A stretch of 12,694 bases of DNA from a virus. Lineage: Duplodnaviria; Heunggongvirae; Uroviricota; Caudoviricetes. Both the position numbers and the translations under genes were made by a program. The notes beneath the pieces were generated by a model. The model was not told the origin of the DNA. It was given only the letters and a program-made list of their open reading frames with translations, and did no database searches. The number at the start of each line of letters is the position of its first letter. Positions within the stretch are counted from its first letter, which is position 1. Shown piece by piece: positions 1 to 11,559 of this stretch. The DNA lies in the IMG/VR virus record IMGVR_UViG_2529293249_000016, positions 1 to 12,694 of that record; one strand, 5' to 3'.

Positions 1-69
1 CACGCACTGTTTAACGAACCGCTGCAGGGCGAATCCGCCAATGCCAGCAATATTGTGGAGATTTTTTGA
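1..69 (+). CDS. 3' end of upstream gene, probably the terminase large subunit (P-like); partial, start lies outside the window
   Basis: Frame 1 is open from base 1 to a TGA at 67-69 that overlaps the portal ATG at 69-71 (TGATG). P2-family gene order places the terminase ATPase gene directly upstream of the portal gene. Frame 2 is also open to 80-82, so the frame choice is not certain. Confidence 0.35.
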   Translation, partial: HALFNEPLQGESANASNIVEIF

Positions 70-1094
70 TGGGAAAGAGTAAGAAGAACCGCGCTGCGGC
101 GACGAATCAGATCCAGCTTAAAAGTCAAACTACAGCCGAAGCATTCAGCTTCGGCGATCCCGTTCCTGTTCTGGACCGCCGAGAATTACTGGACTATGTG
201 GAATGCGTACAGATGGACCGTTGGTATGAGCCGCCCGTCAGCTTTGACGGACTGGCGCGCACCTTCCGCGCTGCCGTGCATCACAGTTCCCCGATTGCAG
301 TAAAGTGCAACATTCTGACCAGTACCTATATCCCTCACCCGCTGCTCAGCCAGCAGGCTTTTTCACGTTTTGTGCAGGACTACCTGGTATTTGGTAACGC
401 CTACCTGGAGAAACGCACGAACCGCTTCGGTGAAGTTATCGCCCTTGAGCCTGCGCTGGCAAAATACACCCGACGCGGGTTAGACCTGGATACCTACTGG
501 TTTGTGCAATACGGTATGACAACCCAGCCGTATCAGTTCACGAAAGGCAGCATTTTTCATCTGATGGAACCTGACATCAACCAGGAGATCTACGGCCTAC
601 CAGGTTATCTTTCTGCCATTCCGTCAGCCCTGCTCAACGAGTCCGCCACGCTGTTCCGCCGGAAGTATTACATTAACGGCAGCCATGCAGGCTTCATCAT
701 GTACATGACCGATGCCGCGCAGAACCAGGAGGATGTGAACAACCTCCGCAATGCGATGAAAAGCGCCAAAGGCCCTGGCAACTTCCGCAACCTGTTTATG
801 TACTCGCCTAACGGCAAAAAGGACGGGCTTCAGATCATCCCGTTGTCAGAAGTCGCGGCGAAGGATGAATTTCTGAACATCAAGAACGTCAGCCGTGATG
901 ACATGATGGCGGCACACCGCGTACCGCCTCAGATGATGGGAATTTTGCCGAATAATGTTGGGGGTTTTGGTGATGTGGAGAAGGCGAGCTGCGTCTTCGT
1001 AAGAAATGAACTATTACCACTTCAAAAAAGATTCATGGAAATAAACAGATGGCTTGGTCATGAAATTATAAATTTTGAAATATATACATTATAA
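69..1094 (+). CDS. Q: Phage portal protein, P2 gpQ-like
   Basis: ORF track 66..1094; the track start is a TTG, the first ATG is at 69 (MGKSKKNR...). Length of about 341 aa matches P2-family portal proteins and the position is next to the cos region. The last roughly 30 codons are conspicuously AT-rich compared with the rest of the gene. TAA stop at 1092-1094. Confidence 0.8.
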   Translation: MGKSKKNRAAATNQIQLKSQTTAEAFSFGDPVPVLDRRELLDYVECVQMDRWYEPPVSFDGLARTFRAAVHHSSPIAVKCNILTSTYIPHPLLSQQAFSRFVQDYLVFGNAYLEKRTNRFGEVIALEPALAKYTRRGLDLDTYWFVQYGMTTQPYQFTKGSIFHLMEPDINQEIYGLPGYLSAIPSALLNESATLFRRKYYINGSHAGFIMYMTDAAQNQEDVNNLRNAMKSAKGPGNFRNLFMYSPNGKKDGLQIIPLSEVAAKDEFLNIKNVSRDDMMAAHRVPPQMMGILPNNVGGFGDVEKASCVFVRNELLPLQKRFMEINRWLGHEIINFEIYTL

Positions 1095-1131
1095 AACCCA
1101 ACGGCATCACAATGATGCCGTTATGAACGAA

Positions 1132-2193
1132 TTAATATTCAAAATTATTTTCTTCAATAGAGAACTCAATCCCTCGGGATAACTTATCAATATTCACATC
1201 AAATGCGATATCTGTTAATTCACCATCCTCGATTTCATACATAACTTCAATTTCAATATCGAAACTAATCTCTTGAACTTCAGTTCGTGTGGTTGTCTCC
1301 ATTGGAATCATTACTTTATCTTCGCTATCCCAATACCCATTATTAAAGTCTGGACCAGAAACAGTAACTTCAAAATCTACAGAAACAGAGAAGGTCGCTA
1401 GACAATAATTATTGTCAATCTTAATTATTGATGGTTCAAAGTCATCAATATTGACGACTTCAAATGAATCCAATTCAGCGTCTTCCCAAGTTGAAACGTT
1501 ATATCCATCGGCATCATTGAGTTGGGCAATTACGTCCGCTCTTATGTCTTCACGTTTGCTTTCGATAAACTGCATCAATTTATTACTTAATTCGTTTGTA
1601 TGCGTATTGTATTCACCTAGAAACTTATCAAGTGAATCAATTTGATGAAGATTGTTTTTACCATCACAATAATTTTTTAAGTCACTATCCTCAGAAATGA
1701 TATACACATCTTCATCATTAACAAATCGCTCTACCGCAGCTAAATTGATTGCATCAGGAAACTCACTTTTTTTCTTATTTTGCCCAAATGGTGGTTCTTT
1801 GCCAAAGTATTTATCTAAAACCTCATTAAGATCTATCACTTCTATTGTAGCTAATTTGGCGTGACATCCTTTCAAAAAATCATCAAAAACTTTTTGTGCT
1901 GCTTCGTGAATTTCATGTTCGTTAAATTGCTGAAAAAAACCATGGAGCGGTCCATTATCAATACTATTCAAAAGCCTAGCTTTTCTTTGTACTGTGTTTA
2001 TAGCCTGCAGAGCATCCTTTATTGATTCCTCTATTTTACCTTTTACTTCTCTCTCTACAACTGTAGTTGTAATTAAGACTAAATCACCTTTCGCACATAA
2101 TTCATGGAAAGCTTTAAATGCTACCCCCTCAAAATGAAGACCAGCCTTTACGTACGTTTGTGTGTCAATAAATACCTTATTTGTTTTAAGCAT
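1132..2193 (-). CDS. AT-rich cargo protein of 353 aa with an N-terminal PIN-like domain (VFIDTQ start) and a very acidic C-terminal half; candidate anti-phage or toxin nuclease
   Basis: ATG at 2193 with AGGA about 7 nt upstream. N-terminus MLKTNKVFIDTQTYVKAGLHFEGVAFKAFHELCAKGDLVLITTTVVEREV resembles PIN-like nuclease folds (DUF4935-type); the C-terminus is D/E-rich. Strongly AT-rich and convergent with the portal gene, lying between portal and cos. Confidence 0.7.
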   Translation of the reverse strand: MLKTNKVFIDTQTYVKAGLHFEGVAFKAFHELCAKGDLVLITTTVVEREVKGKIEESIKDALQAINTVQRKARLLNSIDNGPLHGFFQQFNEHEIHEAAQKVFDDFLKGCHAKLATIEVIDLNEVLDKYFGKEPPFGQNKKKSEFPDAINLAAVERFVNDEDVYIISEDSDLKNYCDGKNNLHQIDSLDKFLGEYNTHTNELSNKLMQFIESKREDIRADVIAQLNDADGYNVSTWEDAELDSFEVVNIDDFEPSIIKIDNNYCLATFSVSVDFEVTVSGPDFNNGYWDSEDKVMIPMETTTRTEVQEISFDIEIEVMYEIEDGELTDIAFDVNIDKLSRGIEFSIEENNFEY

Positions 2194-2317
2194 ACTAATC
2201 CTAATAAGTTTTAAGATCCGCTACAATTGTTTATGTTTATTTTTTATCAATAATCATACGTAGTTAAGATTATCCATGTCGAAAAATTAAATCAACTTCA
2301 ATTTATCCTTAAGCGCG

Positions 2318-2407: not shown

Positions 2408-2680
2408 CTTAGCAAAAACGATCCTCAAACGATCATGCAATCTCATGCAGCATAGACATGCACAGACGAGTAAAGCGAATCGGACCTTACGCAAGGTGAA
2501 CTCCTCAGCGGGCATAATCAGTATGTCGGAAGATCTCTAAAAATAAATAATTCGGTTAACAGGTATGCTTACAAAAGCATATATTTGATTAAAAATCATG
2601 TAAGGGGGAGGATCTCAAACTGAATCGCCACGGGTTTTACAAATTTCGATAGTCTCTCTAACGTTTCGGCTGAGGTCAAA

Positions 2681-3106
2681 ATGAAAAGCTTTTACGTATT
2701 AATTTTAATTCTGGTTGCAAGCTTTGTTAGCGTCCCAGTTCAGGCGGTAACAGCTAAAAACTATGAGAAAGGAACTAAAGCTCAACAGAAATCAATATCT
2801 TACCTTTCATGTGCATTCTATGGCAGTAGCACACAATTAGATCCTAGCTACACGGAGCAAGTACCTACAGCCGATATCAAGATATTACAGAAAGCAGCTT
2901 ACCACGCTTACAACGATGCGCTCTCATACTTTGGCTATGAGGAACCAGATCACGAACAACGCATAATTGATTATGCTGAATTTGTGGCGTCGCAAGAAGC
3001 TGTGTTATGGGATAAGCCGGGAATGAATGGAAAGCAGGTAACACTAATTGCTCGTTCTCTCTACAATGAGAGTAACTGTAACTTGTTACTGGACTCAATT
3101 AAGTAG
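2681..3106 (+). CDS. Small secreted or periplasmic protein (141 aa) with an N-terminal signal peptide; AT-rich moron of unknown function
   Basis: ATG at 2681 with GAGG 5-8 nt upstream. N-terminus MKSFYVLILILVASFVSVPVQA-VTAK has a hydrophobic core and an AXA-like cleavage site. AT-rich and located between cos and the tum-like operon. Confidence 0.65.
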   Translation: MKSFYVLILILVASFVSVPVQAVTAKNYEKGTKAQQKSISYLSCAFYGSSTQLDPSYTEQVPTADIKILQKAAYHAYNDALSYFGYEEPDHEQRIIDYAEFVASQEAVLWDKPGMNGKQVTLIARSLYNESNCNLLLDSIK

Positions 3107-3265
3107 GAAAAAGATGGTATTTTGCCCGTAGTTTCAACCTTAATCTCCGAACCTGTCGCAGAACGGGCGTTCACTCATCAAATAAACGCCACACCTAACG
3201 CCTCACTGTACTCGTTGTTCAACCTTGCTGACGCCAGAACCAAGTTCAGACGCCAGCAACTTTTC

Positions 3266-3850: not shown

Positions 3851-6265
3851 TTAATACAGGTTCCGCCACTTATCATCTTCCTGCAAACGCTGGTTCCGAT
3901 AGAAGATACGCAGGCCTGCTCCTGACGGAATACTGCCGCCGCGAAGGAGTAAATCGACCTCTTTCTCGCTGCCATCAAATCCTCTGGACTTCAGTTCATA
4001 GACGAGCTGCTGTCGCTGATGGTCTGTAATTCGCTGTTTGTAGTCTTTACGCCGTTTCGGTTTCACCAGGCGTAACCTTGCAGCCAGTTCCCGGCGCTCT
4101 TTTTTGCTCATACTGTGCAGGTATTCGTGCAACTCCTTGTCATCCATGCGGGTAATGTCCGTTCTGGTATCCCCATCAGCTGATTTGTCTTTCCCTTGTT
4201 GGTTCAAATTTTCAGCAAGGGGACAGTTATTGCCACGAGTCCAAGGGGCGCAAGCGCCCTGGTCGGCTGCCGCCTCCTGAACGTCAACGGCTTTACGAAC
4301 CATTTTCCACTTTACTGCATGAGTGCAGATCTTGCCCTCTGCAATGGGTGACCAGATGCCATAAATACGAATGCCGTGATCGCCATAGGCGGTCGGCTCT
4401 TCGTTGATTTCATAAGCGGTTCTGATGAGGTGATATTTACGGGGAACCAGTACGCCGCCCTGCTTCATGATGTAGGTGGCAAAACAACCAGCATCAGCAG
4501 CAGCCAGAATGGCATCAAGACGCGGGTTATCCAGTACCGGCGCACCTGCTTTTTTGTCACCCTGTTGCCTTGCCGCCTGACCAGCCAGCAAGCGAAGTTC
4601 ACGGTAAGCCTGACGCCCCGGAATACCAAAGAAGCGGAATTGCTGAACACGATGCAGAGACGCCCAGGCATTCACGTATTCAGCGTTATCACGCAGAGAT
4701 TTACCCGTTTCCTTGCTGATCTCGCCAGCCAGACCACGACCGTCAATGTTCTTACTGATATATTTCGCGATGTAGCTTGTCGGCGTTCCTTTGCGCGGGT
4801 TAATCAACTCAGACTTAAAGCGCGGCCCAGTGTTATTGCCCAGCTCCTCGCGGTCTTCACGGATGGCAAATTTACGCAGTAATGCAGTGATGGCACGGCG
4901 GTCTTTTTTGCGCATGAAACACAACAGGTGCCAGTGAACTGTGCCATCATGATGCGGCTCAGCCACCCGCACGCCATACCAGCGCAACCCGGCTTTGTGC
5001 ATCGCCTTACGAAATGCAGCAAACATGCCGACCAGATAATTGCTGCTTTGTCTTACCGTCGCGTTTGTCCAGGTCGGGTTTGGTCTGCCGTTATTTAGCG
5101 TGGAATGGAAACGCGACGGACAGGTGATAGTGTAGAAAACGGCGCAGTCACCGCGCATTTCCGCGATAAGCTCCAGACCTTTAACACAGGCCATCATCTC
5201 ATTGCGGCGATGCGCAGGGTTGCTGCTGCTGGCGTTTACCACATCCTCCATGTCCAGCGTGTCGCCGTCTTCGTTCACCAGTTCATGAGAACGGAAAAAC
5301 TCCAGCGACTTACGGCGCTGCTCACGTTTATGCATCACGGCTTCATAGCTGACATAAGGAGATGCTTTTTTGCTGACCAGGCAAACAGCGCGCAACTGCT
5401 CTTCCCGCCATTCGCAACGCATCTTCCATAATTTCCGATACCACCAGTCGGCGCACAACATACGCGCCAGCGAACCCGGAATGAGTTCATAGGGCACGGG
5501 TTTACGGCGGTTTCTTTTCCGACGGAGTTGCTCAAACGCAGGTGGGATGACATCCAGACGCAGGGTTTCCGCTGCCACCTTTTCCCATGTCTTGCGGATT
5601 TCTTCTGGCTTAACGTCATCGGTGGCATACAAATCACCACAAGCTGCATCAAGGCACATACTCATATGCGCAGCTACCAGGGTGGACAGGCGTTTCACCT
5701 GATCCTGACTCATTTCAGGCAGGATCAGCAGGCCGTCCAGCCCTTCATGGCTTGCCATAAAGCGAAAAGATGCAGATAGCTGACTGTCGCGTACATGCTC
5801 CAGTCGTTCCAGACATGGCTTAATCGTCTCACGTAAATAGCGGGAATAAGCCTTTGGCCTGCCCAGGCTGCTGAAGTATTCAATACGTTGCATCAGCGGC
5901 TTGCTGATATGGGAAGGCTGGGCGTTGACGTCCGCCAGAATGACCATGTCTGAATTAAAACGCTGCTGCTCATGCGCCAGCTTTGCCCGGCTAATGAGCT
6001 TATCCTGCTCCATTTCGCGCTGGACAGGATCACGTGATTCATTAAAGAAATAACGCTCCCAGACCTGATCACTCAGTGCCTCGCGGCGCAACTGTTCCTG
6101 CTCGTTATCGGCAGCGTACAGAGTGATCAGGTTTGAAAGCGTAGAAACCGGCGCAACTTCCGCCGGGTCCAGATAAGGGTTAATGGCCTTTTTCGGGCTG
6201 TTCCATGAGAATGCTGCGGCAGCCTCGTTAAAGCCGCAGCAGTTGTTCATATCGGCATGACTCAT
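3851..6265 (-). CDS. A: Rolling-circle replication initiation endonuclease, P2/186 gpA family (804 aa)
   Basis: Large ORF at the expected position in the early operon. Contains the tyrosine-rich active-site-like motif [11 protein letters not shown] characteristic of A-type initiators. Its ATG (6263-6265) overlaps the Dam stop (ATGA). Confidence 0.85.
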
Positions 6266-9882: not shown

Positions 9883-11559
9883 ATGAATTCATTTGCCATC
9901 GTTATACTCTTATTAGCATTTCTCGCCCCTGTTCTAGCTGTAATATTATTTAAACAAAGTAAAAAACACAAAGCGGCTATAGATAACCTGACAGCTAACA
10001 ACATAGCCCTTTCTAACCAACTGATTGAAAATCAAGAAAAACTAGCACAGACCGCACGAGAATTATCAGAGCTTGAAGGGCGAGCAGCACCATTGTGGCA
10101 ATACGAAGAATTGCACAGCGCAGTAATGGATGCAGAGAATAAGATAAAAAATGCGGACTCAATAGCCAAGCAAAAAATAGATGAAGCCCAAATTAAGGCG
10201 GCTAAAACAGTAAACGAAGCAAATTATCAAGCTCAGATGACAATAAGCAACGCTAATAGCGAAGCTATAGCAATCACCAAAGACGCTCGCGATGCACGCC
10301 TGAAAGCCAAAGAACGTCTTGATAATGCTAATAATAAAGCAAATGAGCTAATCTCAAATGCTAATGACAATGCAGTAAAAATTATTTCTGATGCAGAAGA
10401 AAGAGCAAAGGAGATTGCTGGTTCAGCATATGAAGCTAAAGAGTTTGCAGAAAAATATGAAGCAGTTGCAAAATCAATGAAAAATAAAATTGAAGGTTAT
10501 GGTGATGAATGGATCATCCCTAACCGTAGTGTACTTGATGAGCTGGCAGAAAATTATGAATTTACAGATGCAGGCAAGGAATTACAAAAAGCCAGAGAGT
10601 TAACCAAATCATTAATAAAAACTAATAAAGCTGCTTCGTGTGATTATGTTGAGCAAAACAGGCGTAATACTGCCATAAACTTTGTTTTGGATGCCTTCAA
10701 TGGAAGAGTTGACAGTATTTTATCAAAAGTCAAACACAACAATTTTGGAAAACTTTCCCAAGAAATAAAAGATGCATTTCAACTAGTAAATTACAATGGC
10801 TCTGCCTTTAGGTCCGCAAAAATAAGTGACATCTATCTTCAGGCAAGACTCAACGAGCTAAAATGGGGTGTAGCAGTTAATGAAATTATGCTCGAAGAAA
10901 AAGAAGAGCAAAGAAGGATTAAAGAACAGCTTCGTGAAGAGGAAAGAGCTCGTAGAGAATATGAAAAAGCGATAAAAGAAGCTGAAAAAGAAGAAAAAGC
11001 TATTCAGCAAGCTATAAATAAAGCAACGAAAGAACTTATGCTTGCAAATGAAGAACAACGCTTAGCTTTAGAGCAAAAAATAGCTGAACTACAGTTAAAA
11101 TATGAAGAAGCTGAAGCTAAAAATCAACGAGCTATTTCTATGGCTCAACAAACCAGATCAGGCCACGTCTATATCATTAGTAATATTGGTTCATTTGGCG
11201 AAGATGTATATAAAATTGGAATGACACGCCGCCTTGAACCACTTGATCGTGTTCGTGAACTCGGAGATGCTAGTGTTCCTTTTTCGTTCGATGTTCATGC
11301 GATGATTTATAGTGATGATGCACCATCATTAGAAAACCATCTGCATAAAGTTTTCAACGAAAAGCAGGTCAATAAAATTAACTCACGAAAAGAGTTTTTT
11401 AACGTAAATTTAAAAGAAATCAAATCAGTTATTGAAGACATGAACATCAACGCCCACTGGACAATGTTTGCAGAGGCGAAAGAATATAGAGAGTCTCTAT
11501 CTATTGAGCAGGAGCGCAAAGCAGCCACTTCCGCCAACGATGAACTACATGTTGCTTAG
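9883..11559 (+). CDS. AT-rich cargo protein of 558 aa: N-terminal transmembrane anchor, long K/E/A-rich coiled coil, C-terminal T5orf172 (GIY-YIG-like) domain; candidate anti-phage defence protein
   Basis: ATG at 9883 with AAGGA 7 nt upstream, 20 nt after the cI stop. Hydrophobic N-terminus FAIVILLLAFLAPVLAVILF. C-terminus GHVYIISN...YKIGMTRR...PFSF...RKEFFNV matches the T5orf172/Mug113 pattern. Inserted between cI and int, which are normally adjacent. Confidence 0.75.
   Translation: MNSFAIVILLLAFLAPVLAVILFKQSKKHKAAIDNLTANNIALSNQLIENQEKLAQTARELSELEGRAAPLWQYEELHSAVMDAENKIKNADSIAKQKIDEAQIKAAKTVNEANYQAQMTISNANSEAIAITKDARDARLKAKERLDNANNKANELISNANDNAVKIISDAEERAKEIAGSAYEAKEFAEKYEAVAKSMKNKIEGYGDEWIIPNRSVLDELAENYEFTDAGKELQKARELTKSLIKTNKAASCDYVEQNRRNTAINFVLDAFNGRVDSILSKVKHNNFGKLSQEIKDAFQLVNYNGSAFRSAKISDIYLQARLNELKWGVAVNEIMLEEKEEQRRIKEQLREEERARREYEKAIKEAEKEEKAIQQAINKATKELMLANEEQRLALEQKIAELQLKYEEAEAKNQRAISMAQQTRSGHVYIISNIGSFGEDVYKIGMTRRLEPLDRVRELGDASVPFSFDVHAMIYSDDAPSLENHLHKVFNEKQVNKINSRKEFFNVNLKEIKSVIEDMNINAHWTMFAEAKEYRESLSIEQERKAATSANDELHVA

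Follow-up and report, generated by a model that had tools for sequence, protein, structure and literature searches.

A composition break inside the portal gene Q at the gpA-gpQ hotspot of an Escherichia coli P2/186-type prophage

In P2-like phages, the DNA that separates the portal gene gpQ from the replication gene gpA is a published hotspot, with a cos-proximal position and a rapid turnover of its genes (Rousset et al. 2022, PMC9122126; Nucleic Acids Res 2026, PMC13586616). Completely different defences are often found in elements whose core genes are identical, by a mechanism that was left open (Nucleic Acids Res 2026, PMC13586616), and an exchange route combining the cos ends with a second homologous event has been proposed without sequence evidence (Rousset et al. 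2022, PMC9122126). How defence genes swap so fast at the P2/P4 cos-proximal hotspots is an open question in these two main papers.

The window, that is, the whole stretch of 12,694 nucleotides analysed here, is a P2/186-type prophage of E. coli, read across the cos site. Related prophages were found by megablast in 1372 of 5426 complete E. coli genomes, with full coverage of the window in none. An AT-rich block lies between gpQ and gpA, as placed by Pfam and in agreement with the RefSeq annotation of matching prophages; it ends at 2312, 8 nt before a cohesive-end sequence (2320-2338), and at least nine other cargos occur on backbones 96-99% identical to the window. The locus is the same as that of the published hotspot: cargo sits between the portal and replication genes, beside cos, and is swapped among near-identical prophages. 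The features that we refer to are the following.

69 to 1094, plus strand: portal gene Q (gpQ), 341 codons and a stop codon; Pfam Phage_portal PF04860, E=1.2e-16
69 to 998, plus strand: GC-normal portal body, GC 0.53, GC3 0.65, common to many E. coli P2/186-type prophages
914 to 995, plus strand: shoulder zone, GC-normal, with conserved protein HRVPPQMMG..GGFGDVEKAS; about 18% diverged from the closest backbone, mostly at third codon positions
999 to 1094, plus strand: AT-rich portal tail, the last 31 codons and the stop codon, GC 0.25, GC3 0.13; encodes ..VRNELLPLQKRFMEINRWLGHEIINFEIYTL
1099 to 1123, minus strand: hairpin terminator of the convergent PIN gene, an 11-pair stem with 5 G-C pairs (terminator scan and sequence reading)
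1132 to 2193, minus strand: cargo gene, a 353-aa PIN_12-domain protein, GC 0.34, GC3 0.25; Pfam PF16289, E=1.1e-25
2194 to 2311, minus strand: AT-rich stretch upstream of the PIN gene, containing a promoter-like site (2282->2253) that has 10/12 hexamer matches, a consensus match only
2312 to 2463, no strand: conserved cos island, its limits set by similarity and composition
2464 to 3194, no strand: second variable segment on the far side of cos, in the position of old/tin in P2, with a probable IS-end remnant and a 141-aa ORF
3851 to 6265, minus strand: replication gene gpA; Pfam Phage_GPA

Q is named phage portal protein in the records of matching E. coli prophages; the mechanical ORF list gives it a TTG start at 66, and we took the gene as 69-1094. 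Pfam identified further genes in the window for a DinI-like protein, a Dam-type methylase, CII, a CI repressor, a DUF4041/T5orf172 protein and an integrase. The 558-aa protein at 9883-11559 (plus strand, GC 0.37), which has DUF4041 and T5orf172/MUG113 domains and a PADLOC match to PD-Lambda-1 (E=2.8e-120), lies between the CI repressor and the integrase. Since this is another of the reported P2 hotspots, the protein counts as a second AT-rich defence cargo.

The composition break in Q and the AT-rich block

An earlier note on this DNA had described the last roughly 30 codons of Q as AT-rich and the remainder of the gene as GC-balanced, and our measurements bear this out, with 31 codons lying beyond a break at 999. 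Counted in 50-nt windows, GC is 0.52 at 944-993, 0.28 at 994-1043 and 0.22 at 1044-1093. A likelihood analysis over the 341 codons placed a GC3 change-point at window position 999 (2-log-likelihood support 996-1005), with GC3 at 0.65 before and 0.13 after it and a logLR of 16.8 against a maximum of 11.7 in 2000 shuffles (P<1/2000), which rules out uniform GC across the gene. In the window this change in GC3 is a step and not a gradient: seven successive codons ahead of the break end in G or C, and then only 4 of 31.

When all bases from 69 to 2193 were considered, the change-point fell at 1000, with GC at 0.534 before and 0.332 after. The opposite limit is equally sharp, with a composition change-point at 2313, so that the block runs from 1000 to 2312 and takes in the Q tail, the terminator, the PIN_12-domain gene and its upstream region. 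The interval 1000-1131 given in the earlier note is accurate, coding tail extending to 1094 and an intergenic terminator region from 1095 to 1131, and the continuity that it proposed between tail and AT-rich cargo is confirmed by the single block that runs to a sharp edge at 2312/2313 beside cos. Amino-acid content alone is insufficient for the drop in GC, since the tail peptide FVRNELLPLQKRFMEINRWLGHEIINFEIYTL is expected to have a GC of 0.40 +/- 0.03 from the codon usage of the window's other genes while the observed value is 0.25, which was reached in 0 of 20000 codon-usage draws. The codon usage of the neighbouring PIN gene gives an expectation of 0.30 +/- 0.03.

The T-run of the terminator (minus strand GGTTTTATAA, 1098-1089) overlaps both the stop codon of Q and the sense codon before it, and because of this overlap Q and the convergent PIN gene share their ends physically. 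At the other end, the cohesive-end sequence at 2320-2338 places the PIN gene between Q and cos. The cargo protein belongs to PIN_12 (PF16289) with 91.4 bits against a gathering cut-off of 32, over residues 7-171, and is called 'PIN domain-containing protein' in RefSeq; PADLOC gave no match for it.

The portal tail and its cargo in related prophages

We compared the window with nine E. coli P2/186-type prophages that carry other cargo (TIR, DprA, OLD-like nuclease, ABC-3C, retron Ec67, DUF262, AAA ATPase, TIGR02391 and an unnamed 557-aa protein), using alignment and register-checked mismatch listings. Their Q bodies are 0.3-8% diverged from that of the window, and the divergence then rises to 26-49%. 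A two-rate change-point analysis placed the jump at 977-989 in six prophages and at 890-914 in the three closest, that is, abruptly and within one reading frame. The proposal in the earlier note that the cargo was gained by recombination, with a junction in the 3′ end of Q, is thus supported, near-identical backbones with other cargo losing their similarity to the window at 890-989 within the gene.

The closest backbone, L086 with a TIR cargo, has 2 mismatches in 336-913 (2/578) and 15 in 914-998, almost all of them at third positions, while about 40% of its tail positions differ from the window. In the closest backbones the divergence sets in at about 870-914, ahead of the composition break at 999, and the shoulder zone at 914-995 is likely the crossover zone. 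The identity of the tail DNA to other alleles is about 0.60 irrespective of the identity of the bodies. The Q body is itself mosaic, 66-335 and about 870-995 diverging separately from 336-870. The 5′ quarter of the gene (66-335) differs from other E. coli backbones at 5-33 positions, and these differences do not follow the divergence of 336-900. Q is followed by other genes in four further phage genomes, namely by a two-gene system, an AIPR protein, a DUF4145 protein or a retron-type reverse transcriptase, and each of the four has its own Q tail, AT-rich to a varying degree.

The tail is inherited with the cargo and apart from the remainder of the gene. L107, which has the same PIN gene, shows 33 mismatches in 1-335 and a different cargo beyond cos, and has zero mismatches over 878-1091; an identical tail beside the same PIN gene on a different backbone lends further support to a junction inside Q. 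In both collections that we searched, neither of the two occurs without the other: every one of the 36 E. coli genomes with a match to 960-2330 matches over the full length, at 99% or more, and 9/9 IMG/VR contigs with the PIN gene at at least 97% identity carry this tail, counts which overstate independence because these copies are at least 97% identical and may descend from few transfers. A degenerate KRFMEINRWLG pattern retrieved exactly the nine PIN-gene contigs and nothing else from IMG/VR, and from metagenomes one more copy of the same cassette together with one 89%-identical copy, L118. Likewise, three distant PIN homologues, at 52-54% identity, directly follow a Q gene with an AT-rich tail, at 0.31-0.37 against 0.57 for the body.

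In L118, a metagenome contig, positions 1-1633 hold the 89%-identical tail, the PIN gene and cos, on a backbone that shares only 77-78% identity with the window. The equivalent of window position 1004, at the composition break, is interrupted by an IS3-family end, and the genes from gpA to those near CI are missing; L118 is a degraded prophage. We had considered it as a unit of tail and PIN gene without a portal body, and rejected this because of the IS3-family end at window-equivalent 1004; it is no free cassette.

Towards cos, the nine compared phages all become similar to the window again at 2292-2313, and stay so at 90-97% identity to about 2463. The 19-nt cohesive-end sequence in this stretch, CTCGTATCCCCGCCACGCC, is identical at 14/19 positions to the complement of P2 cosL, and the equivalent cos position is annotated in the Cartapus record. 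Past it, the segment 2464-3194 has no similarity to L086-L089, and similarity is back at 3153-3195. Since similarity is regained at 2292-2463 and lost until about 3153-3195, the hotspot consists of two variable segments around a 150-bp cos island. About 110 nt beside this island (2464-2576) resemble the left end of an IS3-family element, with its terminal repeat, leader and first six or so orfA codons, and are 78% identical to positions 89-188 of L118, which precede an orfA-like start (MRKARFTEHQ...) on the minus strand; from this resemblance, the stretch is probably a remnant of an old IS insertion beside cos. The same segment has a 141-aa ORF (2681-3106, plus strand) with a signal-peptide-like N-terminus (MKSFYVLILILVASFVSVPVQA). 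It gave no match in Pfam or PADLOC and corresponds to WP_000834899.1, which is annotated in several related prophages.

At the protein level, F310, N313, E314, N326 and Y339 are invariant in 117 portals, with conservation of at least 90% at a further 12 positions of the tail; the alleles are all in frame, with these 17 positions kept. Because about half of its residues are at least 90% conserved, the tail is a homologous in-frame replacement and no novel C-terminus. The four phage genomes with other genes after Q all have the pattern VFVRNEL.PLQ....N.W....I.F..Y.L. The AlphaFold model built from 117 close homologues is poor overall (mean pLDDT 41), and we used from it only the local C-terminal helix, in which residues 301-329 are predicted to form one long helix with a local pLDDT of 68-91. 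A PDB sequence search found no solved relative of the portal. Across the 117 portal proteins, identity of the body to the window and identity of the tail to it show no positive relation (rho -0.33). The tail is thus a still working part of the portal that has been replaced homologously. The earlier note had reasoned that the C-terminal sequence should not be conserved in portals of phages without this cargo, and this stands for the DNA but only in part for the protein, where the conserved residues are kept.

The tail follows its cargo throughout the family. In a sample of 80 loci from species-representative genomes, retrieved by portal protein, the GC of the tail is correlated with that of the next 1 kb at a Spearman coefficient of 0.85 (n=65) against 0.22 for the GC of the body, and among 70 unique tails of Enterobacterales-type loci the corresponding values are 0.77 and 0.14, with P-values that are optimistic because the locus sets are made up of related sequences. 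In these 70 loci mean GC is 0.54 for bodies, 0.39 for tails and 0.39 downstream, and the tail lies more than 10 GC points below the body in 73%. Five loci without cargo, where cos follows the Q stop by only 148-167 nt (P2, L011, L026, L028 and L029), have GC-normal tails of 0.50-0.58; loci with 600-3500 nt between the two have tails of 0.24-0.53. Compared singly, P2, which has no gene between Q and cos, gave a distance of 186 nt and a GC-normal tail of 0.46-0.58.

Among pairs with bodies at least 95% identical, a related first downstream protein goes with a tail DNA identity of 0.995 (n=46) and an unrelated one with 0.60 (n=89), which equals the value for pairs with bodies only 60-80% identical. 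Where the bodies are at least 95% identical and the cargo is unrelated, the 35 codons that precede the tail have an identity of 0.81 against 0.60 for the tail. A significant drop in GC3 was found in 39 of 73 unique loci. Counted in codons from the F of FVRNE, it falls between -28 and +27, clustering at -19..-10 and at -5..+2, and that of the window is at +1; part of the first cluster is a GC3 dip that is also present in GC-normal tails. The left junction is not a single point across these 39 loci. Whatever the cargo, the ORF next after Q runs convergent to it in 78 of 81 loci (L006-L085 and others), and the gap between the two stops is usually about 0-60 nt. An AT-rich tail that tracks its cargo is therefore a family-wide property of the Q-cos site and no peculiarity of this prophage.

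Origin of the AT-rich block

We consider it probable that 1000-2312 is one exchangeable cassette of the cos-proximal gpA-gpQ hotspot, gained by recombination with another P2-like element. What was observed is the composition step, the position of the divergence step, the linkage of tail and cargo across backbones and the family-wide correlation; the enzymology (RecA-type crossover and joining of cos ends) and the reason for an AT-rich pool of cassettes we infer. Such a cassette would comprise the last 31 codons of Q, the terminator, the PIN-domain gene and the promoter region of that gene. Its right joint would fall at the conserved cos island, either by a crossover there or by annealing of the cohesive ends of two different genomes (Rousset et al.), and its left joint would be a crossover in the patch of Q that encodes HRVPPQMMG..GGFGDVEKA..VFVRNE, the last one with good conservation at the nucleotide level. 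As tail alleles of about 60% identity would be too diverged for homologous crossovers, the tail may be locked to its cargo and share its AT-rich history; AT drift over a long time in such a non-recombining segment is a possible origin of the AT-rich allele. The portal still works, since every allele retains the helical pattern and about half of the residues.

The same composition could in principle have evolved in place, a weakly constrained C-terminus beside non-recombining DNA diverging fast and becoming AT-rich by AT-biased mutation without GC-restoring recombination. The two termini are indeed the most variable parts of the portal, with an entropy of 1.3-1.8 bits at residues 321-340 and 1.5-2.2 at residues 1-20 against at most 0.67 elsewhere, and mean GC3 over low-GC loci falls gradually towards the stop (0.39, 0.35, 0.30 and 0.27). 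Searches for an AT-rich donor also favour this view: QKRFMEIN in genome contigs and degenerate KRFMEINRWLG in IMG/VR and metagenomes returned only the same cassette and L118, and no AT-rich P2-like donor with a low-GC Q body was found. A tail-only protein search (41 aa, in a large protein collection) gave just 24 short fragments and no full-length portals, and so bears on donors in neither direction. The nearest relatives of the tail, at about 77% amino-acid identity, are on GC-normal portals of Klebsiella, Yersinia and Salmonella phages. However, mutation cannot outrun the synonymous rate of adjoining codons, and in-place mutation thus fails as the sole cause where the window and L086 pass from 2 differences in 578 positions to about 40% of those in the tail. 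The stepwise change of GC3 in the window and the identical tail on the different backbone of L107 likewise speak against it, and we regard it as unlikely, while AT drift of the tail allele inside a cassette lineage could be compatible with the recombination reading. An element that integrates site-specifically at the 3′ end of Q and brings a replacement for it would leave a similar signature, a diverged and functional in-frame gene end that matches the inserted DNA in composition. We consider this most improbable, because the cassette has no integrase or recombinase (PIN_12 is the only ORF with a family match in 1095-2311), the junctions are spread over about 55 codons among loci, and no direct or inverted repeat common to both ends (860-1020 against 2250-2345) is longer than 5-6 nt, where shuffled sequences give a mean of 6.4, so that no att-like repeated core was found at both ends.

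Portal proteins trigger some defence systems, such as Avs4, and selection could hold tail and cargo together if the cargo needed a matching portal C-terminus in order to avoid self-triggering or attack. The similarity of tails does rise with that of the cargo in related-cargo pairs (Spearman 0.88), and tail identity is 0.66 against 0.61 after removal of duplicates (P=2e-5). Physical linkage alone predicts the same pattern, however, and the effect is seen with cargo of every functional class, the PIN protein is no recognised defence protein in PADLOC, and the Klebsiella phage Kp4845-2 has a related tail (75% amino-acid identity) beside an unrelated cargo, all of which makes functional coupling very unlikely as the explanation. 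The related claim that the C-terminal 31 or so residues of the portal are a cargo-matched module, for example against self-triggering at prophage induction, appears to us quite doubtful; if true, it would mean that defence swapping is coupled to the remodelling of an essential virion protein. In a milder form of it, cos-end joining plus a crossover in the last 70 or so codons of Q would be the general route by which P2-like phages exchange defences, and the type of the Q tail would predict the cargo. A chance fluctuation or an assembly artefact is hardly credible, given a change-point statistic above that of all 2000 shuffles and the identical sequence in 36 complete E. coli genomes and 9 IMG/VR contigs.

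Comparison with known systems

The two papers on the gpA-gpQ hotspot use gpQ as a conserved flanking marker, whereas here the boundary lies inside gpQ and the tail varies with the cargo; the hotspot is moreover resolved here into two variable segments around the 150-bp cos island. A boundary inside gpQ or a cargo-linked tail is unmentioned in PMC9122126 and PMC13586616, to which the comparison was confined, and the words 'breakpoint' and 'C-terminal' are absent from the text of the latter (Nucleic Acids Res 2026, PMC13586616). The model of cos ends and a homologous event predicts one sharp and one diffuse boundary, and therefore matches the boundaries seen in this locus. The footprint consists of a boundary fixed at cos, another spread over the last few dozen portal codons, and a tail that moves with the cargo; it is what cohesive-end joining with a homologous crossover would predict, and it opens this model to tests by crosses. 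In practice, pipelines that anchor on gpQ would place the edge of the hotspot about 100 nt too far out, and portal phylogenies and protein clusters would be disturbed by the tail.

Phage 21 and e14 at icd, and the islands at tRNA genes, are integrating elements that replace the 3′ end of their target gene. The likeness is that a gene end is replaced in frame by a diverged, functional copy with the composition of the incoming DNA; the cassette described here differs in having no integrase and no repeated core at its ends, and in its variable junctions. At gnd, beside the O-antigen cluster, the divergence of a flanking core gene is raised near a locus under diversifying selection. There, as in Q, divergence is highest next to the variable locus and falls off further away, as the flank hitch-hikes along with the cassette, but in Q the flank is tens of codons of an essential phage structural gene, which also adopts the base composition of the cargo. 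Finally, the phage morons of Hendrix and colleagues were described as located between genes. The PIN gene resembles them in being an extra gene, AT-rich and equipped with a promoter-like site and a terminator of its own, between two phage functional units, and differs in that the block takes in the end of the neighbouring essential gene. Set beside these systems, the finding is of an ordinary kind, a recombination junction that falls within a core gene at the flank of a well-known locus, and the detail that it adds is modestly new.
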